A stretch of 64,000 nucleotides of DNA from a virus (Duplodnaviria; Caudoviricetes), in IMG/VR virus record IMGVR_UViG_3300037067_007160, positions 1 to 64,000 of that record, one strand, 5' to 3'. The position numbers were made by a program, and so were the translations under genes. The notes beneath the pieces were generated by a model. That model searched no databases and was not told where the DNA came from. It saw only the letters and a program-made list of their open reading frames with translations. Shown here piece by piece: positions 12,387-54,200 of this stretch (position 1 is the stretch's first letter; each line of letters opens with the position of its first letter).

Positions 12387-12397
12387 ACTATAAGCTA

Positions 12398-12693: not shown

Positions 12694-12719
12694 GAAACTG
12701 GAGGTGTATATGATATGAT

Positions 12720-13133: not shown

Positions 13134-13148
13134 TAAGGGAGGAACGAT

Positions 13149-13517: not shown

Positions 13518-13522
13518 GTTCC

Positions 13523-15574: not shown

Positions 15575-15588
15575 GTAGAGGAGAATAG

Positions 15589-31948: not shown

Positions 31949-32629
31949 ATGGGAAGCTCAATCAGTAATCAGTCAACTTTCCAAAAAACGTTCACCATTC
32001 ACTCTGGAACGGATATCCACGCGGTATTCAATGATCTGCCGATATCAACTGTCCAGGGTATCAGTTACTCCATCACCCGTCAGAAGGCCCCCATCTATAC
32101 GATGGGGTCTTCTGATCTGAGGGCTATTGCCCGCTCTAAGAGAGGTATTGCCGGATCGCTCATCTTCACGACGACCGACAAGCATGCCTTAAATGAGTTC
32201 ATGTCAACCAGTACCTTCGCGGCCAAACCAGGCAGTCTAGAATCAAGTTCAGCTAATCCAGTTGCTGCAGATGATACAGTCAGTACTATTGACTCGGCCA
32301 TTGAGGCAAGTACACTTGGTGGCGGAACTGGAGCAGGTGCTAATGCGCTTAATGCGAACATCGTAAATAGGGCTGTTGGTAGCATTATTGCCCGACCTAT
32401 GTATGCAGACGAGATCCTACCGTTCGATGTTACTCTTTCATCAGCGAATGAGTATGGCAAAGGTGCAGTAATGCGTATTATTGGCCTTGAAATCCTTAAC
32501 GAGGGTTCTGGTCTTTCCGTGGATGATACATCGAACGAAATTCAGATGACGTATCTTGCCAGACTTATCCTACCATGGGTTGAGTTTGTCAATATAATGG
32601 ATCCGAACGACTTAGATCCAACCATCTAA
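31949..32629 (+). CDS. Tail tube protein
   Basis: Follows the sheath; SGTDI, QGISYSITRQKAPIYTMG, RGIAGSLIF, PFDVTL. Confidence 0.75.
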   Translation: MGSSISNQSTFQKTFTIHSGTDIHAVFNDLPISTVQGISYSITRQKAPIYTMGSSDLRAIARSKRGIAGSLIFTTTDKHALNEFMSTSTFAAKPGSLESSSANPVAADDTVSTIDSAIEASTLGGGTGAGANALNANIVNRAVGSIIARPMYADEILPFDVTLSSANEYGKGAVMRIIGLEILNEGSGLSVDDTSNEIQMTYLARLILPWVEFVNIMDPNDLDPTI

Positions 32630-32645: not shown

Positions 32646-33293
32646 ATGAAGTCCAACCTTACCCCATTCGGTTCGCGCCTTTCCCGATCAGTCTTTGATC
32701 GGGAAAGGGATGCGTACTCTGCCACCGATATTGAAGCGATAATCCATGGTATAGATCGTACCACGGGTAATCCAGTTACCGCTAAACTTGGTGACATCCA
32801 GACCATTACCTACTCCATCCATAGAGAGTCAAGTCCCGTGCGCACGCTCGGGCGAACTAATCCTGCTGGTTATACTGCTGGTGGAAGAACTACAGCTGGA
32901 AGTCTTATATTCGCAACATTCAATAGAAGGGCTCTAGAAGAACTATACACAGGATCTGACTACCAGACAGCCGCTGTCAATGGTACTCTATCCGATGCAA
33001 GAATAAGACAACCAACCGATACTATTTCACCATTCGATATTATTCTCTACTTCACAAGCGAACATGGAAATGACTCTGTCATGTATATATACAGAGTCCA
33101 GATTGTTGACGAAGGTCAAACCTTCTCTATTCAAGATGTATATACTGAACATACAATGCAATATATGGCATCTGGTATATCAATGCTTGAAAAGATTGAT
33201 GATGTCTGGAAGAGAGCGTATATTGGAGAAGGTGCAATATTCAACAATCTCACAGCAATTCATAGGGCAGAAGCAGCAGGCCTCATAATATAA
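32646..33293 (+). CDS. Tail tube-like paralogue
   Basis: YSATDI, TITYSIHRESSPVRTLG, RTTAGSLIF and PFDII align with the preceding protein. Confidence 0.65.
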   Translation: MKSNLTPFGSRLSRSVFDRERDAYSATDIEAIIHGIDRTTGNPVTAKLGDIQTITYSIHRESSPVRTLGRTNPAGYTAGGRTTAGSLIFATFNRRALEELYTGSDYQTAAVNGTLSDARIRQPTDTISPFDIILYFTSEHGNDSVMYIYRVQIVDEGQTFSIQDVYTEHTMQYMASGISMLEKIDDVWKRAYIGEGAIFNNLTAIHRAEAAGLII

Positions 33294-34797: not shown

Positions 34798-35424
34798 GTG
34801 ATTGAAGAGAGCATGATACGCAAGTGGAAAAAGATGTATGGAAGAGTATTCCGCTGCGTCATACAAGATGATGTATGGTACTACCGTGCATTGAGACTTG
34901 GAGAAGTAAGAACCGTCTCAATGTGTGAGGATCAGGAGCAAAAAGAACTCATGATCCTAAAGTGTGGTATTATACATCCAAAGATAGAGGATCTGGAAGG
35001 AATAACAGCTGGCGCTGCCGATAGATTAGTGTTACTGATATCGGGTGTTACAGGTGCTGATGAAGAATCCATTCTAAAGAGAGTTTCCGACGAGCGAGAT
35101 AAACTTGGAATAAGTGATGACTACTTGAAGTGGAAGGTCCAGATTATCAAGACTCTTAACTACAATCCCGATGAGGTTGATAGGATGACGATGGACGATT
35201 TCGTACGTGCCATTGTTCTTACAGAAGAAGTGCAGGGAAGACCATTAGTTAGTGTTGGAAAGGATGATGGGACCACTGCACAGCCAGTTGAAGAGGAAGA
35301 AGAGGGTGAACTTGAGAATGTAGATACTAGTACCGCAGCAAATATATCAGAGAGACGACTAAGAGCTAGATACGTAGCGGAGAAGCAGAAAAAGAGAAAT
35401 AGAATTGGAAGAAATTCGAGATGA
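34798..35424 (+). CDS. Second tail assembly chaperone (paralogue with C-terminal extension)
   Basis: KKMYG...WYYRALRLGE...CGIIHP parallels 34389-34730; PDEVDRMTMDDF is gpT-like. Confidence 0.6.
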   Translation: MIEESMIRKWKKMYGRVFRCVIQDDVWYYRALRLGEVRTVSMCEDQEQKELMILKCGIIHPKIEDLEGITAGAADRLVLLISGVTGADEESILKRVSDERDKLGISDDYLKWKVQIIKTLNYNPDEVDRMTMDDFVRAIVLTEEVQGRPLVSVGKDDGTTAQPVEEEEEGELENVDTSTAANISERRLRARYVAEKQKKRNRIGRNSR

Positions 35425-38400
35425 TATAACGGAAGCCCCCTCACAGCCAGGTCCGACAGTCGCCGGACTATTCGGACGTCTGGCTGCATTCACTATTGCC
35501 GCAGGAGCCACAACAACCCTCCTTAGAAAAGGCTCCAGGATGGCGGCCAAGTACATCACATCAAAGATACCAGCAATAACAAAGTTGGGTGGTAAAGAAG
35601 CTACTGGTAGTCTAGAAGGAATGGCCTCCCAATTTATTCAAAAGACATTTCCTTCCATAGGAAATACAACTCTTTCCCGTGACATTCAGAGTGGAAATCG
35701 AGCCTATCTAAAGTGGGCTGCCTCGTGGAATAGGCAGGATAGAATCTTTAAGGAAGTTAAGTACCTTGAAGAAGGGGCTAGACATGCTGTTGATACAATG
35801 GAAGGAATGTCCAAGGCTACAGACTTCCATTTCAATCGTATGCGGATGCAAACTGCTGACTTCTTCGCTCGTCCAGGTCTTGGGCAAAGAGCAACAGGCC
35901 TCGCCTATCAGTTAACAAAGAAGTCTCTTGCTGGTAATGCTGGAGCCTATGTTGCAGATCAGGCGATGAACATCTTTAGTGAACCAGGTGAAAGAACTGG
36001 TCCAGCTTGGTACAATCCTGTCGGTCATGCCATTAACTTCGCAAAGTTCACTGCACAGAACCTACCATATGGTCTTATGTTTAGTGGCGGTCTTGGTTAT
36101 GCAGCCAAGATGGGTGCCGAAGCTGGTATTGGCAGTCTTAAGTTTCTCACTCATGATGTAATTGGAAAGGCAAATACACAGAGGGCCTTGGCACGTACTG
36201 CCGCTGGAGCTGACTGGATCTTCAAAGGTCTAGCTGGTCTCCACACTGCAGCAAGACAATCAATGATACGATCCCAGGCGGTCCTTCCACAAGATGTAAT
36301 GTCACTTCAGTTCTTCAAAAAGGCGATAAATCCAACTACCTGGGTTGATTTTGCACGAGAAGGAATGGCAGGATGGAAGAAGGGACTTGGACTTGCTAAG
36401 AAAGGGGGAAGTACAGACCTCCAGTTTGATGCTGAGATAAAAAATCTCATCACACGTTCTGCTCATATAAATGAACCACAAGGAAGAGAGACATTCCTTC
36501 GTGATTTCTACACAAGGACCCAGAAAAATAGACAAAGTGCATTCGAATACATCTTTGGTCTTGAGAAGAAGGTTAATTTTGAGTCGGAACTCTCAAGATT
36601 AGCCAACCAATCACTATCAAAGCTAAAACTACCAGGTGGAAACCAAGAAAGACAGGCAGCTTCTGATGCTTTCATGCGTGGATGGAGAGATACATCACAT
36701 CTTCTTGGTAGGATGGGTGTGCAAGTACAACCTGGTGTATATAAGGGTGTTGGAAATGGTGTAATTGATATTAGACCTATTCAACCTCGCCGCATTTTGA
36801 ATAAAGTGGCCGATGTAATGAATATGGCCAGCTTTAGGATACCCGGTATTAATTCTCGCATCAATGTATTTGAAATGTTCATGATTCCAAACCTTATTAA
36901 GAAGACAGCATATGAGGAATGGACTGATGGTGCTGTCTTTCTTGGAACAAATAGGACAACTTCACAGAGAATTGGCCGAAGTAGACTCCTTTCTAGTAAT
37001 AATCCAGATGCAGGAGCACTTATTGAGAATGGTTGGTATGCACCGCAAGGTGGTATTGGTGTATTTGCAGGTGGTGGATTCTACCACTATCAAGATGGTA
37101 GTATAAGACGACTACATACACCAAGAGTAACATATAAGACATTCGCAAAGGGTAGTTGGGGACTTATGGCTGATACAATGGCCTGGCTTGGTGGTAGATA
37201 TCCACAACCACTAAAAGAAACGGAGACTGGTAACAGACCATTTGGTAAGAGAGTTATGGAGGCCCTTGACCTTGACATGACGAACAAGGAAGGTGTCTTC
37301 CGTAGAATTGGATCACATGTAAGAAAGTATGTTTGGTCTCCAGGAAATCCACATCCTAACTTCATATATGATAATATTGCTAATTTTGAACGTAGTGGAG
37401 ACCTAGCATCTGGGCAAGGTTTTGTAAGAGGAATAAAACATCTTGTAGATGATGCAGTTGGTGTATTCTCAAGCGTTAGAACGAAGAGATTTACTGATGC
37501 GATCCTTGGTGGTTCGGCTACAAATCCTAATAACCTTGATGATTTTAGGTATGTTGCTGATCGTGCGCGGGAAGCCCTATCAGAAAGTAATCTACATCCA
37601 TATGTAAGAGATCTTGCTTCATCATGGAACATAAGGAAGATAGTAGATAGGGCAGGAATGGTAGATGATTATAATTCCATCCGTAGGATCATGCTTGAAC
37701 CTGCGGCAGGTGGTAGGAAGAACTATGATCAGATGATAGACTTCCTCTCCATAGATGCATTATCCAAGAAGGATAGTGCTGGAGAGGTAATGACGTATAC
37801 AAATGATCTAGTGAATTCTCTTCAGAGGAAGGGTGAAATAGGAGAATTAGGGGCAGCATCCCTTAGAGTTATATCCTATGGACTCTCAAAGCAACAACAG
37901 AGTACCTTCTTTAAGAATTACCTATCACAGAGAGGAGGAACAATACGTGGCGAGAATCTTCAGGAACTAACTAGATTCCTTAAGACAAACTCAGTTGAGA
38001 GAGATATCAAAACAGTAGCGGGAAAGATATACAAGAATCCTCTTAAGAACTTTATAGACTTAGATGATGCCCCATACAAGTCTGGTATGATATCAAATGA
38101 GTCAAAGATACAAAACCTTAAAGAGGCCCCATTTGTTGCCATTCCATGGACCTCTTCTGGTAGGATGTTATCGAAGGAACTCGCTGCCATAGGTCTATCT
38201 GAGGAAAATGGAGATCCAAGGCCAAAGAGAGCACAAGGTGATATTCTTACTGGGAAAAATATACTTTGGGCTACTGTTGTTCGTAGAATGAGTAACGTTC
38301 TTCAACCATTTGATCTTGGTCTAAATCCTGCTAAGTATAATGGTGGTGGAATATGGAATAAGATAGGTGGACCTGGCACACAGATGTTTATAGAGGGTCT

Positions 38401-41400
38401 TGCCCTCAAACGTGCTGGGGCTATAGCTGGCCTTGCAACAGCCTATAGCATAACTGATAGGCTTGTGGATGTTATGCCTGGACTCCAGAACACTCCATTA
38501 GGCGAGGGACTTACAGTATTTGGTGCTGACCAGTTTGTTAAGGCTAGGATGGGAGTCTCCTGGGCAGCTGATGCTCTTGGTATAACTAGTACGGCTAAAT
38601 ATCTTGAAGGTCTCTTTCCTGGAATGATAGATAGTCCTCTCATGCGGGCGGCCAGGGGCGTTATGGCGCCCCTATGGTTGGCTAATGCCATAGGTCATAG
38701 CGGTGGAGCTACCGGAAAGAGACTACAATGGGGTCTTCTTGGTGGTATGGCTATGGGCGCTGTCCAAGGTTTTGGTATGTTCGATATGACCAAGAACACA
38801 GCTGAACTGAAGGAAATTTACTCAGGTAGAGAAGAAATACCTATTAAACGTGGCCGATGGTGGGAACTTGGTAGTTCCAACTATAGCGGTTCTCGTATAC
38901 GTGGATTCTATCCAAACTGGTATGCTAGGTTAAAGTCACAATCTATGTCCACTCCAGAAGGATGGGGCAGTCCATTAGAGCAGATACTCTACAAACCATG
39001 GCCCCTATTTGACTTTAACCCTCTTGGATGGCTTATGGGAGAACCACATCACTATGCGTACCAGCACTACTATAGCCGCCCATATCCAGAGACTGGTTCT
39101 GCCTTCTATGAATTTCCCTTTATAGGACCAGCTCTCTCTTCTACTCTTGGTAGGATTATGGCGCCACCAAAACAGATGCATAAACAGGAACTATATGCAC
39201 AGTTAGATAAATATGGATACTCTACAGCTGGTGGTTTCTCACAGAGGGTTGGTTCAATTCCTGGAACAAGTGAAATGGCTAGGGCAATGCCTGTCTCCAA
39301 CTTTGGAATAAGACAGACACTTGGAAATCAGTTATACAATATTGAGCAGTTTACTGGTCTATGGGGATTTGGCCTTCAGACGGCAACACAGGAACTGATG
39401 GGTGTCGAGCAACCATATGAAGGTGACAATGTTCTAGAAAATGCTGGAGAAATCACTTCCATGCGCAGGCAGTACTATGATAAGGAACTTGGTGGTCTTG
39501 CTGGTATGAGCGAAGCTTGGCGTCGTTTCCTTCCAAAGAGACAGGCACAGGTCAATAGAATTAATCCACTTCAGAATAGGATGCCAAAGTGGTTACCCGT
39601 TCAGTTCAGAGTTGGAGATGCATACGCAAAGACGCCATGGGGAGAACTAGTTCTTCCTGGGCAAGGATATACTAGTGCTCACGATGTTGAGATGACATAT
39701 CCAGCCTCAGCCGACATGCTCGGTCTCCCACTGGAGGAGACTACCAGAAGAATGTTATCTCTTGGACGACCTGAGCCTATTGGTAGGGAAGAACTGGAGA
39801 ATGTTAATGCGAGGATCAAGGCCGCCGCCGAAGTCTATGAACCATATAACGATGTATCTGGAACATATGATGGAATTATAAGGAAGGGGCGCCGGGCCAT
39901 CCTCCAGAAGATTAAGAACTTCAATAGTCAAGAACTAACTGATGTTGTAGGCCCAACTGAAACAGATATCTCAGAAGTAAACTTCTATATGAGGATGGCT
40001 GGCGTATCTGAGGGTATTATTCAGTATAGAATCGATGGTGTTCCTGCACTTGCCTATCCTGTTCGCTATGATGAACAACGTTTTCAAAAGGATATGGATA
40101 TAGTCAATAGAGCTAGAAGAAAGGCTGCTGATCTATATGCAAAGGGTGTTGGTTTTGAAGGAATGGGATATAGTCATCTTGATAGGGCAAGTATACTCGC
40201 TAATGTAGCTCCGTATAGTAATGAATTTAAGCAAGAGTTAGCAATGGCTAAACAATCTGTTAAGATTGGAAAGGGTGATGTAAATAAATTAGAGAAGATA
40301 AAGAAACATGCCAATGCTATGAAGATGGCCCAAGAATTCTATCCAAGAAGATTTCTTGGAAAAGTTATGACACCTGATGCAGCCTTCAACAATATGTCTC
40401 TCAATGAGTATATGAAGGCTGCTGCCGAATACTCGCTACCAGAAAGGGCTCTTGGTGCACTATGGGAAGGTTTTAACTCTCTTAATCATCCATTTGATAA
40501 GTTTCACTCCTATAAGACACCATTAGATGCCTATAAGGCTGATACACTGTATGGTAGACGTATCAAGATGTGGCAAAGTCCTACTGAACACTGGCTCGAC
40601 TCTATGGAGAGAGGGTTCATGTCAAAGGATGATCCAATGAGTGGTTATCTTGCTGGCTTCATTGGTGGTTATGTGTTTGGTGGTGGATCAGCTGGATCAT
40701 TTCTAATGTCTGGTATAGGTGCTGCCTATGGTACTGTCCATGGTCTATATAGAAAAGTTACAGGATCTACATATATCCCCGGAACGGTACAGGAGACAAG
40801 GAATGTGAATAGATACTTTGACCAGATGAACTACCAGAAAGATATGTTACTTTATGAAATGACCGGAAATAATGAGTATCTAGAAGGTGCTAGAAGTACA
40901 ATGACAGGTATTAACCCCAGTGATTTGTCTCGTCAGTCATGGGCCCGTTTCTATAGGGCAACCCCTTATCAAGAGAAACCATATATTATGTCCTTCCTTA
41001 GGGAAACTGATCAGACTGAGCGAAGGAAGATACTCGAAGTTGTTCCTTCTGATGTTGGAGATGTTCTCGCTTCGAAGTGGGCAAAGATGGATGGTCTTAG
41101 TTATGATAGAGAAATGACTAAACGATCAATGGCGAAGATGCCACCTCCTGAATGGGCAGGATGGGCACCAGAGGTTAATCTTGATGACGTTGAACTCAAG
41201 ACTGTAGAACAAATGGGTTTCGAAAAACATGACTTTGGTCTAGGTTGGTATGAGCAAGAGAGGAGGATTAGAAATTCTCCTGGTATTCCTGGTCCCATTA
41301 ACATGAGGGACCCAGGAAATATGGCAACAATAAGCAATACTCCACTCTTCAATCAGTCTGAGGTAAGAAGGTCGATAGAGAGAGCACTAGAAGGTATGGG

Positions 41401-41464
41401 TGTGCAAGCATTTATATCTATAGGGCCATCTTATAGTGATAACCAACTCACTGTGATAGGATAA
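35405..41464 (+). CDS. Giant tail protein at the tape-measure position (2019 aa)
   Basis: Follows the chaperones; Gly/Ala-rich hydrophobic segments; degenerate PD-(D/E)XK-like segment. Confidence 0.55.
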   Translation: MEEIRDDITEAPSQPGPTVAGLFGRLAAFTIAAGATTTLLRKGSRMAAKYITSKIPAITKLGGKEATGSLEGMASQFIQKTFPSIGNTTLSRDIQSGNRAYLKWAASWNRQDRIFKEVKYLEEGARHAVDTMEGMSKATDFHFNRMRMQTADFFARPGLGQRATGLAYQLTKKSLAGNAGAYVADQAMNIFSEPGERTGPAWYNPVGHAINFAKFTAQNLPYGLMFSGGLGYAAKMGAEAGIGSLKFLTHDVIGKANTQRALARTAAGADWIFKGLAGLHTAARQSMIRSQAVLPQDVMSLQFFKKAINPTTWVDFAREGMAGWKKGLGLAKKGGSTDLQFDAEIKNLITRSAHINEPQGRETFLRDFYTRTQKNRQSAFEYIFGLEKKVNFESELSRLANQSLSKLKLPGGNQERQAASDAFMRGWRDTSHLLGRMGVQVQPGVYKGVGNGVIDIRPIQPRRILNKVADVMNMASFRIPGINSRINVFEMFMIPNLIKKTAYEEWTDGAVFLGTNRTTSQRIGRSRLLSSNNPDAGALIENGWYAPQGGIGVFAGGGFYHYQDGSIRRLHTPRVTYKTFAKGSWGLMADTMAWLGGRYPQPLKETETGNRPFGKRVMEALDLDMTNKEGVFRRIGSHVRKYVWSPGNPHPNFIYDNIANFERSGDLASGQGFVRGIKHLVDDAVGVFSSVRTKRFTDAILGGSATNPNNLDDFRYVADRAREALSESNLHPYVRDLASSWNIRKIVDRAGMVDDYNSIRRIMLEPAAGGRKNYDQMIDFLSIDALSKKDSAGEVMTYTNDLVNSLQRKGEIGELGAASLRVISYGLSKQQQSTFFKNYLSQRGGTIRGENLQELTRFLKTNSVERDIKTVAGKIYKNPLKNFIDLDDAPYKSGMISNESKIQNLKEAPFVAIPWTSSGRMLSKELAAIGLSEENGDPRPKRAQGDILTGKNILWATVVRRMSNVLQPFDLGLNPAKYNGGGIWNKIGGPGTQMFIEGLALKRAGAIAGLATAYSITDRLVDVMPGLQNTPLGEGLTVFGADQFVKARMGVSWAADALGITSTAKYLEGLFPGMIDSPLMRAARGVMAPLWLANAIGHSGGATGKRLQWGLLGGMAMGAVQGFGMFDMTKNTAELKEIYSGREEIPIKRGRWWELGSSNYSGSRIRGFYPNWYARLKSQSMSTPEGWGSPLEQILYKPWPLFDFNPLGWLMGEPHHYAYQHYYSRPYPETGSAFYEFPFIGPALSSTLGRIMAPPKQMHKQELYAQLDKYGYSTAGGFSQRVGSIPGTSEMARAMPVSNFGIRQTLGNQLYNIEQFTGLWGFGLQTATQELMGVEQPYEGDNVLENAGEITSMRRQYYDKELGGLAGMSEAWRRFLPKRQAQVNRINPLQNRMPKWLPVQFRVGDAYAKTPWGELVLPGQGYTSAHDVEMTYPASADMLGLPLEETTRRMLSLGRPEPIGREELENVNARIKAAAEVYEPYNDVSGTYDGIIRKGRRAILQKIKNFNSQELTDVVGPTETDISEVNFYMRMAGVSEGIIQYRIDGVPALAYPVRYDEQRFQKDMDIVNRARRKAADLYAKGVGFEGMGYSHLDRASILANVAPYSNEFKQELAMAKQSVKIGKGDVNKLEKIKKHANAMKMAQEFYPRRFLGKVMTPDAAFNNMSLNEYMKAAAEYSLPERALGALWEGFNSLNHPFDKFHSYKTPLDAYKADTLYGRRIKMWQSPTEHWLDSMERGFMSKDDPMSGYLAGFIGGYVFGGGSAGSFLMSGIGAAYGTVHGLYRKVTGSTYIPGTVQETRNVNRYFDQMNYQKDMLLYEMTGNNEYLEGARSTMTGINPSDLSRQSWARFYRATPYQEKPYIMSFLRETDQTERRKILEVVPSDVGDVLASKWAKMDGLSYDREMTKRSMAKMPPPEWAGWAPEVNLDDVELKTVEQMGFEKHDFGLGWYEQERRIRNSPGIPGPINMRDPGNMATISNTPLFNQSEVRRSIERALEGMGVQAFISIGPSYSDNQLTVIG

Positions 41465-44400
41465 TGGCTAGAGAAGAAGATAACCTTAATGGTATAGAGA
41501 TAGCGATGCGAACCGGGGCCGGACTTGGCCTTGGTTATGCTGCCATCCATGCATATCGATCAGACTATCAGGGGATGAAGAGATCATTTCTTGGTATGAA
41601 TCTATCACCTACCATAAAGAGGGCCTTTACCCGCATTTGGCAATTCTCAGGTGAGTTCTTTGAACACATAAACATGGAAAAGTCACTTAGTCTTCCAATA
41701 TATATGCAGGAGATTAAGAATGATTTTGAAATAACGCGAGTTATAGAGGAAATCAATAGAAAAAGGTCGCAAATTCAGGACATATTCCTTGGTGCATCCG
41801 ATGCTATAGAGAATATAAGGGCAACTGCCCTAGTAGAAGGTATAAATCCTGAACATCTAGTTCCAATGCTCGGAGAATTTAGCACCTTTAGAAACAACTA
41901 CTTTGGTAGAGCTCTTTGGAGAGCTGAAGTTCTCACTGAATCAACATTTAAGGGAAGGTCAGCTGCTGTTGAAACTGGAAGACTTGAATCTCTACGAGTT
42001 GATGAGTTAGAGTCTATAAATCAACAGTTAAAAATCGTTAGGGATAGGGCAAGACAACTAGAATATAATATACGTGGAGCAAAAAATGATATTCAGAGAA
42101 TAGTAAACCTCTCTACATCAAAAATGGGTGGTGTAAGTGAACAAAGGACTTCTGAAATTATTACTGACAAGATGCAGAAGATAAGAGAAAGGATAGATGC
42201 AACGACAAGGACAATAGGTGGACTTGCCGACCTAAGACCAACATCAAATCCAGTTCCACAGACACCAAACTTCAAATTCTGGACAATAGGTGGCGATATT
42301 CGTGATCTCAAATCACAAATATCAAATCAAAGGTTAATAGGTAGGGAGGGGTTGCACACAATCTCCACTGTTGTAAAACAGATGTATGATGATCCACTTC
42401 TGACAAAGAATATTATTGGTCCAGAAAAGATTGCTCAGAGAAAGACAGAGGAAAGACTCGTTCGAAGAGAATTCATGGCGAACATACGTGATTCTATTAG
42501 AGATCTACAAAGGACTGGAATCTTTTCCTCTGTAGAAGTTGGTGTTACAACAGAAGCCATGGATGAAGTTGTTATTAGAGCCACAAAGAGAGGTGGTGGA
42601 GAACTTCTCATTCCATTGGCCATAAATATACCAAAGACAGAGGCAGGAATACGATATGCACGACGCGGAGGAAAGACATTCTTCCAGCCATTCACAAAAC
42701 AGAGAAACATTTTGCTTGAGCAGTCAAGACAGGCATCATATATGTTATCGGATCCAGCCTTTCTTCCTCAAGATATCGATGAGAGGGTAAAAGACTCTCT
42801 TGATTCAATCTTTGATAGAATGATGTTACCATCTAAGACAACATTAGTAGATGCAGTGCAAAGTGCTCAGGTAAATCAACGACTTACCCATCAAGAATCT
42901 GAACTTTTTATGGGAGCTTGGGATTCTTTTAGAAAAATACAGAAAGTAAAGATGGGTAGAGGAAGTATATTACATATAGATCTTGAGGGTGACCAAATTG
43001 GTTGGTCTTTAATGGACTGGAAAGGACAACCTATTGATGGTTACCACTTCGCTATTGGTACAGGTGCTGTTGCTAAGACACCAACACATCTTCGATCAAA
43101 ATCCCTAGGCGGACATAATATCGTCCAGGAAATAGGCGAGAATGAATTGGATAAGGTTGTTGATGCTCTTCATAAGACTATTATGAAGTCCTATGGTAAA
43201 CCTATCCGGATTGCAAGTAAAGCATATGGATTATTTGATAAAGAAAAGCTAAATGCCTTACTTACAGAAGTCGATAAACGCTCAATGGGTGGCAATCCTA
43301 AGATTGCGGCTCTTAAGGCCGCCCTATCATCAGATAATGTCATTGAAATCAATAACTTACCACGTATGAATGGCGAAACACTACAGGTAAAGGGCGTACA
43401 ACTCTTCCGTATTATGTCCAGACACCTAAGGAATAAACCGAAGTTGCGTGCACAGATGGAACAACTAGTAAAGAAGGTTGGAATTCCTTCCTTTGATGAG
43501 ATCGGTCAGATGGTGGTCGAACAGGGACATCATACGGCCTTTATGGATGCCTATATGCAGGGTATCTATGTTGAATTCACAAGGATGCTTCAAAAGAAGG
43601 ATAGAAGGGCTGTAGAACGCGAGTTCAAGAAGATAAAGGAAGGTTTTCTACCAGATAGACTTACTGTAGGTCTCTATCATAGTGAACTCTCCCATCTAAG
43701 GCGTCTGAACGTCTCTCCATCAGCTAGCATTCATGGAAAGTTGGATACAAGTGGTAGCATGCTAACAAATCCATTTCCAGATCAAAGGCCAGGCCATGAA
43801 TATAGGCAAATTCCATCTATGCAACTTAGGAGTATATCAGATCCTGTTACGAGAAGAAGAATTCAAGATGAGTATAGAAGACTTATGGATGCAGGAATTG
43901 AACCTGATCTAAATCAGATACTAAAGCGTGAATTGAATGAAATACATACGAAATCCTTGGTTCTTATTGATCCTGGCGGAACTCGTTACATGGCAAAGGA
44001 TGATTTTGGATTTTCAGATCCTCTTATGAAATCTTCTACTTGGGCTGAGGCCTATGAGGAAGTTGTTGATAAGGGATCTAGTATTGAATTTGGTATAAAG
44101 GAGGGTGCTGAGGTCTCAACTGGTGGATTTGTTGGCCTACGTCGGGATGAACCAATTGCTTTTAAGTCAAGAAAACATACCCAGAAAGGTATAGTTACTT
44201 CCATTATAGATAATAAGGATGGAACGGAGACTATCGTTATTAATAGAATTAATAAGTTAGGATGGGGAATTCCTGTTGTTGTTGGTGGTTCTCAGGCGGC
44301 AACTGTTACAAGATCCATGGATGACTATCTACCACATATTGGTGGTGACTTCAGTTCATTTCGATTGGCTGCATATGCTGAGAAGAATAACCCTGGCGCC

Positions 44401-47400
44401 GTTATGTCAGACATGCTCGCTCTTATGTTTCATCACTCTGGAATGGGCCCAAATGCAATAGTAAAGAATGATATTCTGACAAAGATAATTATGAAGAAGA
44501 TGGGTGCTGATCCAAAGGATGCTAGAAGGACAAGGTTTCCAATGGTAAGAGATACTCTTAGTGGAATGATGAAACCAGATGTAAGAGGAAGAGAATACTG
44601 GTACGAGAACTTCAAAGACATGGATATTGGTAAAATTGTCGAGATTAGCGAGGAGTATAAGAGACAGGTTACCGCTCTTGGAGATTCCTTTACTGGAAGT
44701 CGGCTTATTTTCGATGAAATTCATAAGGTAATGGGTAGGAGTGAGATACGTGAGACACAGGACAAAGTCCTAAGATCCTATGGTATGCTTATGGGCCAGA
44801 AAGGATATATAGAGGCAAATGTGAAGATAGCTTCACATAATATGGGTCGTCCTATTAGTGAGAGTGCTATAAAGTCTAGAGTAAATGATGTAAGGAGAGT
44901 CCTCGAGAGTGGAGATGTCAAATCTGCCATTGCCCTCATGAGAAATGATATTAAAATAGGAGAAGTGGATGATATCTTAGAGCAGTTACCAGCCCACTTT
45001 GGTTTTGTACGTCATAGGGAAGATCTTGATGCTAGACTTACATGGTCACCAGCCACCGTAAGCTGGGATTCTGTTGTTGCCCGTGACTTTGATACTATGA
45101 GTGGTCTTGGTGAGTTGAAACAACTTAATATTAGCATGGCCACTCTTGAGCAACTCTCACCTTTACGGGATAGCAAGGGTCTCTTGGATATTCTTCGAAC
45201 AGGCATCTATAAGAGTGATCCAATTAAGACATATAGGATGTTTCCATTTTCATTTCTCTCCTCTAAGGAGACCTTATCTGGATTCAGACGAGTATCTAGA
45301 AATGATGTTACAAAACATCTCAATAAGTTCCTCGATAGGTGGATGTCTCTACCAGAGACAACAAGAATGGGTAACTTCAATGGTTGGATACCAAAGGATG
45401 CTGTTTATAACCTAAATGGAAGTTGGATGACAAGAGAAGCAGCCCAATCTCACTATGGTATGACATCAATTGAGTTTGATGAAGCCGTTCGTGATGGAAA
45501 GGCTACTTTGGTCGATCCAACTGTCCTAAAGAGTCGTCTAAGAGTTGCTTCTGATGTAGACCAGATGAGAAGAACTAGCATGCAACCATTTTCAGTAGAA
45601 TTTGGTAGGGATGCTAGACTTTCCGTTGAAGCAAGATGGAGTAAGACAAATGTTAATATAGAGCGTCTTCTTATTACACAAGCATCGAGAGAAGACTACT
45701 TTCCTGTCGATATGGTAGGCCCTGGGGGTAAAAAGCAACGTTATCTCATTGAATCTCCCATCCAGACCAAGACAAGAGAGGTCCTACGTCATATTCTATC
45801 TGGCGCCTTCGTAAATCCACGAGATGGTAACACAGGTGGCCCTGTTCTCCAGGAGTTAATGGATCTCTACCAGGACTATACTGTGAAACTCAATTTGAAG
45901 ACCTCCCTGGCAACCTCTATGGTCCCTGTTGTCCGTTTCCATGGAAGTACGTTATTTACCGACCTTCCTCAACTATCTGGTGGAGTAACGACCAAAGAAG
46001 AGGCTATGAAGGTCATGATGGGCGTCTTTGGTACAAAAGAGATGGATTCCAAGATGTTTCTTCGAAGAAGAGGTGTAATGCCAAGAAAAGAAGGATTCAT
46101 AGTTGGTGTCAATGAAAGAGATGTTGATAAATGGATAGGAAACGTCTTTTCAACCCTATCTTCTGATGATATTAAGGCAATGGCCAATCGATTCCTTGGA
46201 AACGTAAAACTTGGTAATAAGAGTGGGATAAATCCAAGTCTATATACTCTACGTCATATGGCTGAATTTGGACCGGCCGATGGAAAGAATTTTGCCTCAA
46301 ATGCTCTTGGTATGATCCAAAATATAGCTAGTTCTAAGGTTACTGGAGATGCTGCTAGAAAAGGCTGGCTTGATCTAGTACTAAAGGGAGTTACTCCTCT
46401 ATCAATGGGCGGACTGAAATTTCCTCTTGCTGACCAAGGCAAATTCGTAGGTGAGGACTTCTATAAGGCTATGGCCTATGGTCAGGATAGGAAGAATCTT
46501 GCTTCTAGAATGGCCATTGGTGGAAGTCCTGTAGGTGTCATGCCTTCTGCGGCCATGTTCCAGGGAACGATCGATACAGACGGTGACTTCCTTGCCTTCA
46601 TGCTAGGTGAAGGTGTAACAGAGAAGGTCCTTAAGATTATGGAGTCTAATACCTTCTTTTCTGAGATTAATCCTATTGCTCAGGTCGTAGGTACGGAGAA
46701 GGGTATGGTCCAACTTTATGATACAGTAAATAATGAGTTTATCAAGCGACCTATGGGTGTAACAACTCACTTTACGGGGTTAAACAAGGCAGAGTCTGTA
46801 CAGGCCGAGTTATGGACCAAGCAGGCGGCCGGTAAGATCACAATCTTCTCTGAGAACATAGGTCAATATATGTCACGAGTCCTATCTCATAGGGGAAGTG
46901 GACTTGCGACGGATCTTGGCCAGGAAACAATGTCAAAGATGAGACTGCAGTTGAGAGAGTGTATGGGTGCCCTTATTGAAGGTGGCGCCCTTAAGGGTAA
47001 GTCTTCAAGTAGTGCTGGATCTGATGCCATGATCGAATTCTTCGATAGACTCTCCCATGAATCAGGGGTAAAGGAGTTTATGGGTGAGGTGGAGACTATT
47101 GTCAGAAATGGAGATCCAAGTGATGTAAAGGTTGGAATGTTCAAGAAACTTCTATCTCCTATAGTCGGTTTACAGGATGTCTTCGAAGGAACAAAGGGAA
47201 TGGACTTTGGGGATGTTATGATCCAGGCAGCTAGAGGAGGTCGGGCACTTGGAAGTCTATCAGCCGAGGAAATACTTGTAGGTACATCACATAGGGCAAA
47301 GGATACATATAAGGGCCAGATGGTAGATGCCATGCGTAATATCCTTCCGGACATTCCTACTCACTTTACACCATGGAAGCAGGAGGGTGTCCTCACGGCC

Positions 47401-47838
47401 ATGAAGAGGAACATAACAAATGACTTAAGTGAACAACAGTGGAGAAAGGTATCAAAAGGTATGGGATGGGCGGCTGCTGCTGGAGCTGTCTTCCTTGCCT
47501 CAAATATGTTTAGGTCAGATGATAACCAGTTTCTTGGAGATAGACCTGGCTTCGGTGGAGAGGCTAGAGACTTTACCTTCACGCGTCCTGAGTATGAAAT
47601 GGGAGGACTTCTTGATACACCATATAAGAATCCATGGAGTAAGAGTAGGGCATACGTAACAATGGCCAATCCTTCAATGAACCAGAAGATGCAACAGTTA
47701 TCTAGAAAAGAGGAGCAAGATATAAGGACTTTCCATGAGGTTATGGGTCTTGAAAAGACTAGAGTTTCGTCATCCTTTAATTATGGAAAACGTGACCTAG
47801 CCGGCTATAGACAGCTTCTCGAAAGATACGGACAGTGA
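41464..47838 (+). CDS. Putative virion RNA polymerase (two-barrel) with DEDDh exonuclease domain (2124 aa)
   Basis: IDTDGDF (DTDGD at 46573-46587) preceded by KFP; exonuclease motifs HIDLEG, YGLFD and HTAFMDA. Confidence 0.6.
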   Translation: MAREEDNLNGIEIAMRTGAGLGLGYAAIHAYRSDYQGMKRSFLGMNLSPTIKRAFTRIWQFSGEFFEHINMEKSLSLPIYMQEIKNDFEITRVIEEINRKRSQIQDIFLGASDAIENIRATALVEGINPEHLVPMLGEFSTFRNNYFGRALWRAEVLTESTFKGRSAAVETGRLESLRVDELESINQQLKIVRDRARQLEYNIRGAKNDIQRIVNLSTSKMGGVSEQRTSEIITDKMQKIRERIDATTRTIGGLADLRPTSNPVPQTPNFKFWTIGGDIRDLKSQISNQRLIGREGLHTISTVVKQMYDDPLLTKNIIGPEKIAQRKTEERLVRREFMANIRDSIRDLQRTGIFSSVEVGVTTEAMDEVVIRATKRGGGELLIPLAINIPKTEAGIRYARRGGKTFFQPFTKQRNILLEQSRQASYMLSDPAFLPQDIDERVKDSLDSIFDRMMLPSKTTLVDAVQSAQVNQRLTHQESELFMGAWDSFRKIQKVKMGRGSILHIDLEGDQIGWSLMDWKGQPIDGYHFAIGTGAVAKTPTHLRSKSLGGHNIVQEIGENELDKVVDALHKTIMKSYGKPIRIASKAYGLFDKEKLNALLTEVDKRSMGGNPKIAALKAALSSDNVIEINNLPRMNGETLQVKGVQLFRIMSRHLRNKPKLRAQMEQLVKKVGIPSFDEIGQMVVEQGHHTAFMDAYMQGIYVEFTRMLQKKDRRAVEREFKKIKEGFLPDRLTVGLYHSELSHLRRLNVSPSASIHGKLDTSGSMLTNPFPDQRPGHEYRQIPSMQLRSISDPVTRRRIQDEYRRLMDAGIEPDLNQILKRELNEIHTKSLVLIDPGGTRYMAKDDFGFSDPLMKSSTWAEAYEEVVDKGSSIEFGIKEGAEVSTGGFVGLRRDEPIAFKSRKHTQKGIVTSIIDNKDGTETIVINRINKLGWGIPVVVGGSQAATVTRSMDDYLPHIGGDFSSFRLAAYAEKNNPGAVMSDMLALMFHHSGMGPNAIVKNDILTKIIMKKMGADPKDARRTRFPMVRDTLSGMMKPDVRGREYWYENFKDMDIGKIVEISEEYKRQVTALGDSFTGSRLIFDEIHKVMGRSEIRETQDKVLRSYGMLMGQKGYIEANVKIASHNMGRPISESAIKSRVNDVRRVLESGDVKSAIALMRNDIKIGEVDDILEQLPAHFGFVRHREDLDARLTWSPATVSWDSVVARDFDTMSGLGELKQLNISMATLEQLSPLRDSKGLLDILRTGIYKSDPIKTYRMFPFSFLSSKETLSGFRRVSRNDVTKHLNKFLDRWMSLPETTRMGNFNGWIPKDAVYNLNGSWMTREAAQSHYGMTSIEFDEAVRDGKATLVDPTVLKSRLRVASDVDQMRRTSMQPFSVEFGRDARLSVEARWSKTNVNIERLLITQASREDYFPVDMVGPGGKKQRYLIESPIQTKTREVLRHILSGAFVNPRDGNTGGPVLQELMDLYQDYTVKLNLKTSLATSMVPVVRFHGSTLFTDLPQLSGGVTTKEEAMKVMMGVFGTKEMDSKMFLRRRGVMPRKEGFIVGVNERDVDKWIGNVFSTLSSDDIKAMANRFLGNVKLGNKSGINPSLYTLRHMAEFGPADGKNFASNALGMIQNIASSKVTGDAARKGWLDLVLKGVTPLSMGGLKFPLADQGKFVGEDFYKAMAYGQDRKNLASRMAIGGSPVGVMPSAAMFQGTIDTDGDFLAFMLGEGVTEKVLKIMESNTFFSEINPIAQVVGTEKGMVQLYDTVNNEFIKRPMGVTTHFTGLNKAESVQAELWTKQAAGKITIFSENIGQYMSRVLSHRGSGLATDLGQETMSKMRLQLRECMGALIEGGALKGKSSSSAGSDAMIEFFDRLSHESGVKEFMGEVETIVRNGDPSDVKVGMFKKLLSPIVGLQDVFEGTKGMDFGDVMIQAARGGRALGSLSAEEILVGTSHRAKDTYKGQMVDAMRNILPDIPTHFTPWKQEGVLTAMKRNITNDLSEQQWRKVSKGMGWAAAAGAVFLASNMFRSDDNQFLGDRPGFGGEARDFTFTRPEYEMGGLLDTPYKNPWSKSRAYVTMANPSMNQKMQQLSRKEEQDIRTFHEVMGLEKTRVSSSFNYGKRDLAGYRQLLERYGQ

Positions 47839-47850: not shown

Positions 47851-47997
47851 ATGGCATTCCAAGTGGTTGTTAAAGTTAGAGATTCAAAAAAGGTAAGAAA
47901 CCTAAGGGCACTCTCCCAACAAATAGCTAGTCTTTTAGAGCAATTTACTGGGAAGAGGACCGTGTTAACTATTAAAGACTTTGGTAAACCAAAATGA
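47851..47997 (+). CDS. Small protein (48 aa, MAFQVVVKVR...TIKDFGKPK)
   Basis: Read by hand; ATGA overlap with the next gene. Confidence 0.6.
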   Translation: MAFQVVVKVRDSKKVRNLRALSQQIASLLEQFTGKRTVLTIKDFGKPK

Positions 47998-48278
47998 AGA
48001 AACTCTGCAAGCATTGTATGATAGAAAAAGATTATTGTGAATTTAATAAGAATTCACATACAAAAGATGGTATAAACTATATATGTAAGTTATGTGTTAG
48101 TATATATAATAAGAAATATCATGATCATAATACTGGTAACGTTCATGGTTTACTTTGTAGTTCATGCAACACAGCCATTGGATTACTGTATGATAATCTT
48201 AGTATAGCAGAATCTGTTGTTGCCTATTTGAAAGACCATTTTATTATAACTGTCAAGGACTTCTCTAATGCTAAATGA
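47994..48278 (+). pseudogene. Internally deleted endonuclease VII-like homing endonuclease
   Basis: N-terminal CxxC...CxxC finger joined directly to HDHNTGNVHGLLCSSCNTAIG. The usual preceding CxxC and VD are missing; AT-rich. Confidence 0.6.
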
Positions 48279-51200
48279 TAGGATCAGTCTAGACTACACA
48301 AAGGAACTTGGTGAAGCCTTCGAAAAGGAGAAGGCTTCACGAGGTGCCTTTACAGGTGAAGTTGAGAGAGTTATTGATGGTGATACCTTTGTCCTAGCTG
48401 GTCGCCAGCAACATGTTCGTCTAAAGGGAGTTAATGCACCAGAAAGAAATTGGAGCAAACTAACATCATCCGAGAAGAAAACTCTTGCTGATGTTGATGG
48501 TGAGAATTCCTATAAGGAACTTCAAGATATCCTTGATGGAAAGAGAGTTAAACTCAGTAGTGTAGAGGCACAATCTGGCAAGAATCATTATGGTGAACGT
48601 ATTACTGCCCTAGTATATACATTGGATGGTACTTTTGTCAATGCTGAAATAATTAGAAGAGGATGGGCTGTACCAGAACCAGATTTCGCATCCCAGATAC
48701 CATATGATGAGATGATTATGTTGGATCAGGCTGTAAAGGAGGCAAGGACAAATAAGCGCGGCCTCTGGTCAAAGGACCCTGGTAGCAAACTTCTAGAGCA
48801 ATTCATACCTATTTCACCGACAAATCTTGATCCTATAGACAAACTGGAAGAATACAGAAACATTCCTGGTGCAACTAGGCTAGGAACCATGTGGCTATAT
48901 GTTCCTCCTGCCCAGATAACAATAACAGAACATAACTCTAATGTAGAGTGGCCTACTATGCGCACACCTGGTACGCCACGACTGCGTTCTACTCAACAGG
49001 AACAACGCATTGAAATGGTTGTCATCTTTCCTAATATGTGGAGTATTAACTACCAGTTAAGACCTTTAATTGCTCAGTTCATTAGATCACCATTTCTTCC
49101 ACTTGAAAATGATCATATTAGGAGTATGGTCATGCCAAGTTATCTGAACTCTGTTGAGAGTGTTTCTGAGCAACTTGGATCAAGGTTCGACGATAAAACA
49201 AAGATATCCAAGTTAATAGCAAAACGGCAGGAAGAGGAAGGAAAGAGGATAGCTGAAGATCTTGGAAAGATGTCACTAGGATCCGTGGCTGACAACCAGT
49301 ATCAGGTAAAGCAAAAACCATCAGCAACGAAAGTTGATGATAGACAACTATTTATTGCTCTTAGAAATATCGTAGTAGCAACAATACCAGGAACGCCAGA
49401 AGCTCTCCAAGTAACGTTTACTATGACAGTTTTTAATTACCTACCACATATGGAGAAGGTTGAGTATCTTAGAAAGATGCCAGATCTAGAGAATCAACTT
49501 AAGTATCTTCAGATCATTGCTAATATGCGATTTCCAGATACTGTTAATAAACAGGCCCTCAACATAATAAATAGTTGTGGAACAACGACGAATGCATCAG
49601 ATAGCGAACCTTTCAAACGCTACTATAAAACTCTTCTTTCTGAGACACAGATAGGACAGACTGCTACTCCTGTATCATGGGTAAAAGGCATGATGCCTCG
49701 TCTCTCTCCTCTACAGTCTTCTAGTATGTATAGATTCAAGTTTATTCTACCAACAAATACACTATCAGCTGAGGATGTTGCTAGAAATCAAGATGAGATT
49801 GGTACATTAGAGACGCTTATTCAGAATAAGATAACAGAAGCTATAAGGGCTAGAACGAGAAAATTACTTGGAAATGATCTTGTAAATGATACAGTAGGTC
49901 AATTACTTAAGTCAACTACGGCCGTAATGAGAATATATAGTGACTTTCTTGTAAGAGAACTTCCAAGATCAGTAAAGAACTTTGAAACAAAACTATCTAA
50001 TAAGGAAAGTTTCTCTGTTAGTTTTGGTGACTATCTTGATGCAAATTCGACCGACCTACTTACATCCATCAAAGGTACTATGCTTACTGATAAGTCAACT
50101 GCCTATGATATTCTAAAGGCTGCCATTGGTGACGCTATAATAGGAGCTGATGATATCATACGGGCCACAAAGAGAATATTTGAACTTGATAGTAGGAATG
50201 TTGTGGGAACAAAGGGAACAACAATGGAAGTTGTTGTTGAAAACAACGGAAGTACAACCATAACAGGAGCCAGTGCCACATTCTCTCCTACCATAGTTCC
50301 TATCTCCATAGTTGACCATATTATGCCATCCTGCCAATTCTTAGGAAGAAGTGACTGGATGATGTCGATCAATCTTATGACAAATGACTTTACGCTTGTT
50401 CGAAGGCTTGCCACAATGAGCCAAGTTGGAAGATTAAGTCAGATAGCGAATGAACGGTCTGGGATTAGGTGGTTCATGGTTAAACTAAACTCTACAATGG
50501 TCCCAATGCTTCCAAATGCCAATGGTCTATTTTCCTACCTAGGAATAAGTAGAGTCCTATTTGAGGACTGCGTCTACGAATCAGTGAAGGAAAAGCCAGG
50601 TTGGTTTAATGTATCTCTTAGATTAGTGCAATCAGATATCGATATGGCCGAGTATGAGAGTCTGATACCAACGAACAAAGTAAGAGCTGAGGTTGTTAGA
50701 AGCATAATAAATAACATTGCTAGTGGAACTGTTTCATCTAACAAGAATAAGACAGTTCAAAGAATGTTTAATACTGTCAAGGCCGTTTTTAGACAGTCTA
50801 TGAAGATCTTTAGCACTCTCAGTCTAGTCGATGCAACTGAAGAGGATATCGATGAGCTATCAGATATGCCTGAAGTAATAGGTGGAACCATACGGGCAAT
50901 GGATAATCTTGAGAAATGGTCAGAACATGTGAAGAAACTTCTCATAAGTAAGGATAATAGATACTTTCAAACTGACACACATATTTCTGGTAATGATGTT
51001 GATGGATACGCCATCATTAAAGACGAGGACACAAGTGCTCCTTGGTTCTTTGATGAAAGAGCTCGTATATCCAGACTTACCTTCCAACAGGCGATAAACT
51101 CGGCTGTCATAACTGCTATAGCAACAGATCCAGAAGGAATACTTGAGATATACGATCCAACATTAGCTAAGGCTTCCGAAAGTCAGAGAATGCATGCTAT

Positions 51201-54200
51201 AAAACTTCTAACCTTTTCCAGTGATATAAGGACGACAAGTCCACTTCATGGTTGTTATCCAGATCTTGAACTTCCCTCATATACAGTAGATCCACTTATC
51301 GTTGGTCCAGACTTCTTCTACAAAAAGGAAGAGAGGATTGCTCCAGAAGCAACAAGGATCGTATCAGATAGATTGGAAAGCCTATATAAGAATGCCCTAT
51401 CGACAATGGGTAGAGTAAAGGCCACTGGAGAAGTTGGAAAGAAGGCAGAAGAAGCAATGAATAGCCTTCCAGGAGACATAATACCTGACATCCGCCTATA
51501 TTCTCTTTATAAACAAGTGAAGGAACAACAAGGATCCGAGGAAATAGTAAATAGTAGTGGGTCTAGTGCGGACGAAGTATATAAGAATGTCAAAAGAATA
51601 ATGGAATCTGGAAAGATAACAATGCCTTCCGATGAGGAGGATAAGACTCTTATAGATGAACTAGATGCCCAAGAATACGCAAATGTATCGGCTAAGGAAC
51701 AGGTATCAATGTATCGTGTATCTCTTGCCTTTAGGATAGCAACTCTTCAGGACATGATTAAGCAAGGAGCGGAGAAGGAAGAGTCTGTTCGCTATCTAAC
51801 AAAACAGAGGGATACGTTACTTGAAGAGTACAACGCAATACCAAAGTATGCCTCAGTTGGTACGGATGCTATGCAAAATATATGGGGAGTTGCTACTCCT
51901 TCAACTATAAAGAGAAGCTATCTTTATATGCAAAAGGCAGCCGAGGCCAAAGTCCTAAGGGCTAGGTCTGAGGAAGTATCTGGATCGCTAGCTAGGGTAT
52001 ATCCTACCATGAAACTCTACTTTATTGAAGAGGATCCTCACGAGTGGCAACTCTTTGATGACTACTATGAGTACTCATCCATTCGTAGTGCCCAGGTAGT
52101 GATGTCCGATGATTCAGCTTCAAAAGTGGCAACAATTCAGATATCTAACATTACACAAAGACTAACGGACGCAAAACCTGGTCTTACTGAAGTCTCATCA
52201 GCTGATCAAACTTCACAGGAACAAACTCTTACCTCATTCCTTCTTAGAGAAGGAATGACAATTATGATTAGAATGGGTTATAGTAATGATCCTTTACTTC
52301 TAGAAAGAGTATTCTTTGGAAAGGTTGTCTCGGTCTCTCCTGGTGATACGATACAGATAGTAGCTCAGTCCTTTGGTGCGGAATTCATGTCACAAGTATT
52401 TAATGGAGAGGAAAGAAATCTTGGCTATCTTGGCACAACACGTAGTCATGGAGATGTCCTATCAGTAGCCATGAGTGATATGGATGGGCTTGACCACTTT
52501 GGTAATAGAAATTGGTTAGAAATGCTTAGATTGAAGGATCCGACATTCGCCAGCCCAACCTTTGAAGGTTTTGCCTATAGCAATCCAAAGTATAAGAAGT
52601 GGGACTACTATACATCTATCATTAATCCAATTAAGAAACTTATACAGTTTGGTGTGTATGATCCTAGATTTGAGAATATGTATATTCCATTTAGTGGTAA
52701 CACTTGGAGTGGAACAGCTCAGATAGCAATGACAGCAATGGCAGCAAGCGTTGGAGCGCCAGCAGCACTTCTTGCTTTTCCTGCATATATAACAGCCAAA
52801 ATAATGGGAAAGGAAACACCATCACTCTCAAAGGCTAAAGGAGATGAGTGTTTCGACTGGTATACGACTCCTGGAACTACACTATGGGATATGATGCAGG
52901 AAATGGCTCTCTACTATGAAGATTACATAGTAACTACCCTACCGTATAATGAGGATATTGCAGGCTGGCAGAGGGAGACAATCTATATTGGTCCACGAAG
53001 TGGATACTATAAGTATACTGAGCGATTTGATGATGAGAAGACAGCATCTGATATGTTCAAGAAGAATAAAGAGATGTACGATCTTCCACTTGAATTTTCG
53101 GATAGTAATCGTGCGAAACAAAAGCAAATGGTGTTGCAAAAGATGGCAGAAGATAGGGGAATGAACGGTGGTATCACCGATGGAAAGATCATTACATATA
53201 GTGTAAGAAATGTAAGCGATCCATTTATAACGACCAGAGATGATGCTGGTGTAGTTGTAGCAACGAACTACGGTGGTTCCTACCATCCTTCATACGGTTA
53301 CTACGTAATTATTGAGATGACAGATAATAGAAGTGTTGAGATCGTCAGAGAGGGAACAAAGAACTATACGATGGTCTATGGCCTATCTGATCCAAAGGAT
53401 CTTGTTGATATTATATTTGTAAATGAAAGTATTGGCCAGGGTCAGACACTTGGATATTGCGATACCAACGTGAAGCAGATATTTATCCAGCCAAAAACAG
53501 CTGCTATTCCAAATATAAATACAGTATGGGGCAACTATATTAATATGGTAGAGAAGAATGTTGACTATGAACTTAAACAGTTCGTATCTGTCTCCTCTGA
53601 TGCCACAGTAAAGACATCAATATTAGGATTACCAGTTAATGCTAATGTATCAGATGTAACAAGAACAAGACCTAGTGAGTCTCAAAAAGATGCTGCGAAG
53701 TATACTATTAATATAAAGAACCCTGAACATATTATAGATTCTGAAGGAAAACCAGCTAAGGGATATGCTTCAGTCGTAAATTACCACTGGGTTGATAGTC
53801 GACATGATATTATAGAAAACACAATAATGGCAACAGCAGAGAATCTCCATAATAAGGTTACCATTAGATTTCCTGATGATCCGGGTTCTGGTACAGATAA
53901 TGAGTTTACTATGGTTGCTGATGACAATATAAAACCAGGAAATCTACGCCATCTCATTGTTAAGGCACCAAATATCGATCCTGTTTCATGGGAGTTTGGC
54001 CAGAAGTTCTATCAGCTTGTTATGAAGAATCCTCTTAGGGCTGTCCCTAGTGTTGGTATTATGCCGGCAAAATATACAGTTACGGCAAATATCCTCGCTA
54101 ATGAAATGAGGAAGATGTATGGTGGATATCTGAGAATCTGGGGCCGACCATCTATCAAACCCTTTGATGTTGTATATATGAACGATATGAGCAATCAGAT

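Follow-up and report, generated by a model that had tools for sequence, protein, structure and literature searches.

The window analyzed here, the first 64 kb of a 130,355-bp viral record (IMG/VR IMGVR_UViG_3300037067_007160; 42% G+C; CheckV completeness about half), covers the tail module of a myovirus and, within it, an open reading frame (ORF) whose product of 2124 amino acids (aa), P0001, is the subject of this report. The ORF (41464–47838) lies on the plus strand (+), as do all elements of P0001 described below, and stays open over 2124 codons. It is the middle one of three giant genes with products of 2019, 2124 and 2251 aa, and its ATG shares one base with the TAA stop codon of the upstream giant (TAATG, 41462–41466). 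The gene order runs from terminase, portal and capsid genes to an 828-aa sheath (29448–31934), two tube paralogs, two chaperone-like ORFs, the three giants and a Baseplate_J-like gene. The nearest isolates by sheath are Moorella phage MTATph1 and Bacillus phage 0305phi8-36. The original prediction for this ORF, a virion RNA polymerase fused to a 3'-5' exonuclease, was built on a DTDGD loop and a set of DEDDh motifs, and both the ORF and all of the motifs named in it are present where it placed them.

The same three-giant tail module is found in 0305phi8-36 (ORF145–147). The upstream giant (giant 1; 35405–41464, +) is a homolog of gp145 (phmmer E = 1.4e-63) and the downstream giant (giant 3; 48268–55023, +) a homolog of gp147 (phmmer E = 4.8e-25). 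According to the 0305phi8-36 record, gp145 and gp146 are virion proteins by mass spectrometry, and gp146, the positional counterpart of P0001, is a hypothetical tape measure. A place in the virion is therefore suggested for P0001 by analogy, as a tail-module gene product with such counterparts. Giant 1, not P0001, follows the chaperone-like ORFs, and no tape-measure profile matches P0001 (best 0.24). Giant 3 has a staphylococcal nuclease (SNase) domain at the N-terminus and an endolysin-like region (phrog_20474) at the C-terminus, and its relatives bear SNase or Peptidase_M23 domains. No recognizable hub domain was found in giant 3. The predicted setting between giants of a tail module holds. 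Giant 1, gp145 and gp146 have no cysteine and P0001 has one in 2124 aa, a near absence that fits proteins travelling unfolded. The cysteine counts of the third-slot giants are higher, with six in giant 3 and ten in gp147. No paralogy was found among P0001, giant 1 and giant 3, and no transmembrane-grade hydrophobic segment in P0001.

Protein searches identify four close homologs of P0001 at 33–66% identity and one 99%-identical copy, and a profile search of 1.8 billion representatives yields further, distant proteins, mostly of about 2,070–2,300 aa. HMMER matches in these distant members lie mainly over the C-terminal 100–150 residues, and P0012's match starts ahead of the DxDGD motif and extends to the C-terminal module. 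The family is easily missed by annotation, as it consists of metagenomic sequences only and counts about 20 cluster representatives in the 1.8 billion. No relatives were found by tblastn of P0001, P0017 and P0023 against 50,697 phage records or by a profile scan of viral contigs with the family alignment, and a second, word-based homolog search with the 17-sequence profile returned the close clade only. Pfam searches with all 17 members at E <= 1 gave nothing relevant. The full-length members keep a size of 2074–2299 aa despite 13–16% identity, and two members are shorter, P0016 (1345 aa), which lacks the exonuclease region, and P0020 (1742 aa). Family members always occupy the middle position of three giants, flanked by tail chaperones and baseplate, in myoviruses of the 0305phi8-36 kind. 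The synteny extends to distant members, in which sheath, tube, chaperones, giant 1, the P0001 homolog, a 49–63-aa ORF, a lysin-bearing giant 3 and the baseplate follow one another.

In the conservation alignment, 17 sequences at 13–66% identity to P0001 share no more than 11 invariant columns, namely P1654, D1704, D1706, D1708, K1786, E1839 and five in a C-terminal module (aa 1993–2070; 47440–47673). This module consists of an Ala/Gly-rich hydrophobic stretch and, after it, FRPD..LG..PG.GGE..D..FT.PE. Nowhere else is the family so well conserved; the module is the sole part that HMMER detects in distant members, and it has a weak match at the same relative position in gp146. A role in assembly or at a membrane is conceivable. 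The short database proteins P0011, P0014 and P0021, which contain the module, may be fragments at contig ends. The N-terminus carries a Gly/Ala-rich, mildly hydrophobic stretch (aa 14–31; 41503–41556), which is below the transmembrane threshold and in which G20, G22 and G24 are invariant in the close homologs.

The Asp triad belongs to D1704-T-D-G-D1708 (46573–46587), a candidate Mg-binding loop in which the three Asp residues are kept in 17/17 sequences and the Gly in 14/17; P0007 and P0010 have the three Asp and no Gly. The loop is part of a candidate catalytic barrel region (aa ~1640–1740; 46381–46683), beta-prime-like and corresponding to double-psi beta-barrel A (DPBB-A), whose fold is predicted by comparison, using hhalign with permutation controls. 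Upstream of the loop lies K1652-F-P1654 (46417–46425), a [K/R]-x-P element with an invariant Pro and a basic first position (Lys or Arg) in all 17 sequences. Downstream are TKQAAGK (46816–46836), with the invariant K1786 at the start of a predicted helix of 32 residues, and G1835...E1839-x-G1841 (46966–46986; IEGG or IEWG), in which the Glu is invariant. The KQAAGKIT and LIEGGALKGK strings of the original prediction are residues 1786–1793 and 1837–1846, respectively. It is by inference that we read the helix from K1786 as a possible bridge helix and these elements as resembling beta-prime motifs.

Nearly all distant members have DxDGD or a close variant about 400–490 aa from the C-terminal end, in forms such as GGDQDGD, GGDSDGD, GADTDGD, ADFDGD and similar. 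The common pattern is a hydrophobic strand, [K/R]-x-P, about 40–50 residues, G-[GA]-D-x-D-G-D and another hydrophobic strand, which ends in Pro in the distant clade. A DxDxD of some kind is present in 10 of the 147 ORFs of the 130-kb record, and DxDGD in two, so that occurrence of the motif alone is weak evidence. Its conservation, on the other hand, goes beyond chance, since the Asp triad makes up three of only 11 columns that are invariant down to 13% identity.

Validated members of the two-barrel superfamily share little beyond the motif (PMC10770324), and motif-centered cores, from 60 residues before to 30 after DxDGD, were therefore compared by hhalign. In the permutation control the flank columns were shuffled and the five motif columns kept fixed. 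The distant clade of the family resembles the cores of gp96 and gp64 of phage P23-45 (probability 65%, P = 6e-5), with a score of 31.0 versus 18.3 +/- 1.8 for the permuted profiles (z = 7.0, 0/100). The positive control, crAss-like cores versus P23-45, reaches z = 6.6, and the distant clade versus E. coli RpoC z = 2.4 (3/100). P0001's own clade is in turn linked to the distant clade with z = 7.6 and a probability of 90%. At whole length, hhalign against RpoC, gp66, crAss-like cores, gp96 and gp64 places its top local matches mostly on the DxDGD region, with probabilities of <=2%. When a five-sequence core profile is searched against PDB sequences, an RNA polymerase beta-prime chain (8dkc_D) comes out best, albeit weakly (E = 0.13), and the whole-family profile has a weak match to a phiKZ beta-prime piece (7ogp_A) close to the motif.

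The second set of motifs lies in a DnaQ-like (DEDDh) exonuclease-like region (aa ~495–700; 42946–43563), where D506/E508, D592 and H690/D695 follow one another in DEDDh order and align in register with D12/E14, D103 and H162/D167 of E. coli DnaQ. The HIDLEG string (residues 504–509, from 42973) contains Exo I, D506-L-E508 (42979–42987), and YGLFD (residues 588–592) ends in the Exo II residue D592 (43237–43239); Exo III is H690-x4-D695 (43531–43548). The region is covered by 16 members: 9 have DxE, 14 an acidic residue in the Exo II column and 12 H-x4-D. The motifs are kept across clades, with all three intact in 9/16 members, including P0001. In P0023 the segment aa 518–744 (LDIET, HEAARDA), at the same relative position, matches phrog_192, 'DNA polymerase exonuclease subunit', with E = 5e-14. 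P0001 itself matches no exonuclease profile in Pfam or PHROGs, nor PF00929. The E. coli enzymes DnaQ, RNase T and Orn resemble the family region weakly in profile comparison (z = 4.2 when P0023 is included, z = 2.0 when it is left out), and the P0023 region compared with the rest of the family is not significant (z ~1). The DnaQ-like exonuclease domain is probably real and ancestral in the family and is likely to be active in P0001.

A second DxDGD protein is encoded in the window. The 742-aa ORF at 6545–8773 on the minus strand (-) has DYDGD at aa 420, within LGKDYDGD, which is invariant in an alignment of 17 sequences. It has 21 homologs at 40–66% identity and no Pfam domain, and one of these homologs shares a 132-kb contig with the closest relative of P0001. 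At full length, the family of the 742-aa ORF has no significant profile match to gp64, gp96, gp66 or RpoC. At the level of the motif, the protein may be a small non-virion two-barrel polymerase of the YonO type and a partner of P0001. A search of positions 1–16200 for repeated promoter-like motifs gave nothing convincing.

What the data show are the motifs, their conservation, the synteny and the homology of the flanking giants to virion proteins; the barrel fold, packaging, injection, RNA synthesis and the template of this synthesis are inferred. The reading that we favor, at a rough probability of 0.5, is that P0001 is a tail-delivered giant in which a DnaQ-like exonuclease is joined to a catalytic core similar to that of two-barrel polymerases, and that it works like gp96 of P23-45 or gp66 of crAss-like phages. 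Both motif sets are real and appear to be ancestral features of the family. P0001 would then be a tail-lumen or ejected virion protein in the slot of the putative tape measure gp146, with a DEDDh 3'-5' exonuclease module at aa ~495–700 and a C-terminal polymerase-like core at aa ~1640–1850, its catalytic Mg ions bound by D1704, D1706 and D1708. The analogy with gp96 and gp66 suggests that P0001 would pass through the tail into the cell together with the DNA. Inside the cell, its transcription of the incoming genome would precede all phage protein synthesis, and the transcripts might include the mRNA for the 742-aa DYDGD protein. The exonuclease would play an accessory part, trimming or clearing nucleic acid, and some lineages can do without it. 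The interpretation given in the original prediction is partly supported.

Several observations weigh against this reading. Searches of Pfam, PHROGs and PDB sequences with P0001 gave no match, and neither PF00623 nor PF00929 matches anywhere in the whole record. P0001's own clade shows no similarity to known polymerase cores beyond the motif (z = -0.1 versus P23-45), and the polymerase homology argument for P0001 is therefore transitive, running via the distant clade only. The family element that aligns with the R-x-P of the polymerases is ambiguous, as hhalign picked an Arg other than that of the invariant [K/R]-x-P. Inspection of aa 1405–1600 for a second barrel (DPBB-B) with two basic residues revealed no clear conserved Lys/Arg pair; K1475 is kept in 14/17 members. 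The positional counterpart gp146 (2537 aa) shares with P0001 at most a marginal similarity, in two colinear patches (E = 0.02), and has no DxDxD, so that the middle slot can hold a protein that is not a polymerase. With respect to the exonuclease, Exo I and Exo III are both absent in P0004, P0005, P0009 and P0019, and the Exo I Glu alone is absent in P0010, P0012 and P0015. Since catalytic residues are lost in several lineages, the exonuclease is not essential to the core role of the protein and, on these alignments, seems dispensable in some lineages.

The alternative that survives best, though we consider it unlikely, makes P0001 a structural protein of the tail comparable to gp146, either a tape measure or a plug of the tail lumen, whose invariant acidic loop binds metal for a purpose other than polymerization; this could be folding, a part in tail-tip attachment or channel formation, or a different phosphoryl-transfer activity. 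The slot shared with gp146, annotated as a hypothetical tape measure and devoid of DxDxD, is what this proposal would lead one to expect, as are the tightly kept length of the full-length members at such low identity, the weak coiled-coil-type matches of residues 278–359 and the fact that conservation is best in the C-terminal hydrophobic module and not in the DxDGD region. A barrel is also not seen in the AlphaFold2 models, both of which are of low confidence: P0001 aa 1101–2010 has a mean predicted local distance difference test score (pLDDT) of 50.6 and the homolog P0017 aa 1580–1900 one of 57.1, with about 35–60 in the motif region of both. Foldseek against the PDB and a wide VIA-align search with these low-confidence models returned chance or helical-bundle matches only, which are uninformative on the fold, and at this confidence the models do not decide between presence and absence of a double-psi barrel. 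However, in the distant clade the sequences around the motif are as similar to validated polymerase barrels as the two partners of a true positive pair are to each other, and the combination of the invariant triad with a Pro, a Lys and a Glu that likewise never vary looks catalytic in 1,900 residues that otherwise drift freely. A structural role is also compatible with an enzymatic one, as P23-45 gp96 fulfills both (PMC10770324).

Multidomain 'polyvalent proteins' that are injected have been described before (cited in PMC7824862), and P0001 could be an effector of this kind with a nuclease as its payload, in which the DnaQ-like domain and the SNase of the next giant would act on entry against nucleic acids of the host or nucleotide signals and DxDGD would be an unrelated module. 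The SNase domain next door and the bona fide exonuclease profile match of P0023 are consistent with this proposal, which we nevertheless regard as improbable: both Exo I and Exo III are missing from 4/16 members and the Exo I Glu from a further three, whereas every member retains the Asp triad, which points to stronger selection on the DxDGD module. The least probable of all is a two-barrel DNA polymerase with PolD-like chemistry and a proofreader of the DnaQ type, which would enter together with the genome and repair or complete it at that point. Two-barrel DNA polymerases are not known from bacteria or phages, the closest similarity of the core is to phage RNA polymerases and exonuclease loss in several lineages fits a proofreading replicase poorly, even though it is typical of DNA polymerases to be paired with a DEDDh exonuclease, the PHROG matched by P0023 is named after a DNA polymerase subunit and both barrels are common to PolD and RNA polymerases (PMC10770324, PMC7281927).

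Some neighboring features are of separate interest. A 94-aa HNH or endonuclease VII-like ORF (47994–48278, +) lies between giants 2 and 3, at a site where relatives have an amidase or M15 peptidase gene and the 49–63-aa ORF; it looks like a homing-endonuclease insertion or replacement. The adjacent paralogous ORFs directly after the sheath (31949–32629 and 32646–33293) match phrog_9206 ('major head protein'), a label that is misleading because the same genes in 0305phi8-36 are noted as tail tube and tube paralog. Beyond the 64-kb window, the record encodes a 1298-aa GT4 glycosyltransferase split by an intein (109598–113494; Intein_splicing and Hint matches), and the giant upstream of P0023 on its own contig (L019) has faint Hint/LAGLIDADG matches. 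Also beyond the window are a TubZ-like tubulin gene (107852–109105) and a fused DnaG-primase/DnaB-helicase gene (103916–106447), followed by a sugar-modification run of sulfatase, DegT aminotransferase and glycosyltransferases.

The most far-reaching form of the proposal is put forward tentatively, and we hold it to be doubtful as a whole: an as yet undescribed lineage of single-chain two-barrel polymerases, located in the tape-measure-slot protein of large myoviruses related to 0305phi8-36, fused to a DnaQ-type exonuclease, carried into the cell by a contractile tail and accompanied by a small non-virion polymerase with DYDGD. The original prediction had called the combination of polymerase and exonuclease unfamiliar among characterized enzymes. 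It has more precedent than that prediction assumed, since a two-barrel virion polymerase in the tail module is already known from P23-45 gp96 (PMC10770324). No description of an exonuclease fused to a two-barrel polymerase was found in the literature searched. Next to gp96, P0001 would be a very divergent new lineage in a myovirus group. The virion-delivered two-barrel RNA polymerases recorded so far are those of crAss-like podoviruses, the tape measure of the siphovirus P23-45 and the multisubunit enzymes of phiKZ-like jumbo phages. If the favored reading is true, P0001 would represent a fourth, independent lineage, in contractile-tailed phages, a polymerase embedded in a tail-lumen protein would be a recurrent route to host-independent early transcription and the two-barrel superfamily would gain a very divergent branch. 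Among two-barrel RNA polymerases it would also be the first to have a dedicated nuclease for proofreading or processing, and the attached DEDDh exonuclease, if active, would bear on whether such polymerases proofread or process transcripts. Should deoxynucleoside triphosphates be used, P0001 would be the first two-barrel DNA polymerase outside archaea.

Compared with known systems, the exonuclease-like region of P0001 has the motif order of DnaQ-like DEDDh exonucleases (phrog_192; E. coli DnaQ, RNase T and Orn), with Exo I DxE, Exo II D and Exo III H-x4-D. It differs from DnaQ in motif spacing (86 and 98 residues in P0001 versus 91 and 59 in DnaQ), with a large insert between Exo II and Exo III, and the family differs from these enzymes in that the catalytic residues are degenerate in 7/16 members. 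The 742-aa ORF is comparable to YonO of SPbeta by its size and its DYDGD loop, and a YonO-type minimal two-barrel RNA polymerase has been reported in 0305phi8-36 (PMC7824862). Searches with this ORF detected no sequence match to this type, in comparisons that did not include YonO itself.

The virion RNA polymerase gp66 from crAss-like phage phi14:2 (2,180 aa, PDB 6VR4; bioRxiv 10.1101/2020.03.07.982082) resembles P0001 in its size, in being a single chain, in having several giant virion genes nearby and in that the Asp triad is nearly its sole recognizable feature. However, its loop is DFDID, with no Gly, and its virion is podovirus-like, whereas P0001 has DTDGD and belongs to a myovirus; its core is weakly similar to the P0001 family (probability 2%, z ~2.7, 1/60), and tblastn with gp66 matched only Crassvirales and Flavobacterium or Cellulophaga phages. 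In P23-45, gp96 is a two-barrel virion RNA polymerase fused to the tape measure and gp64 is its paralog (PMC10770324). P23-45 is a siphovirus and not a myovirus, the gp96 module is located at the N-terminus of a 5,002-aa tape measure and not in the C-terminal quarter of a separate protein of about 2.1 kaa, gp96 has no exonuclease domain and similarity to the P0001 family is undetectable outside about 80 residues. Still, gp96, like P0001, is a tail-module giant with a DxDGD loop, gp96 and gp64 provide the best profile similarity to the motif flanks through the distant clade, and both phages encode a second, small DYDGD protein.

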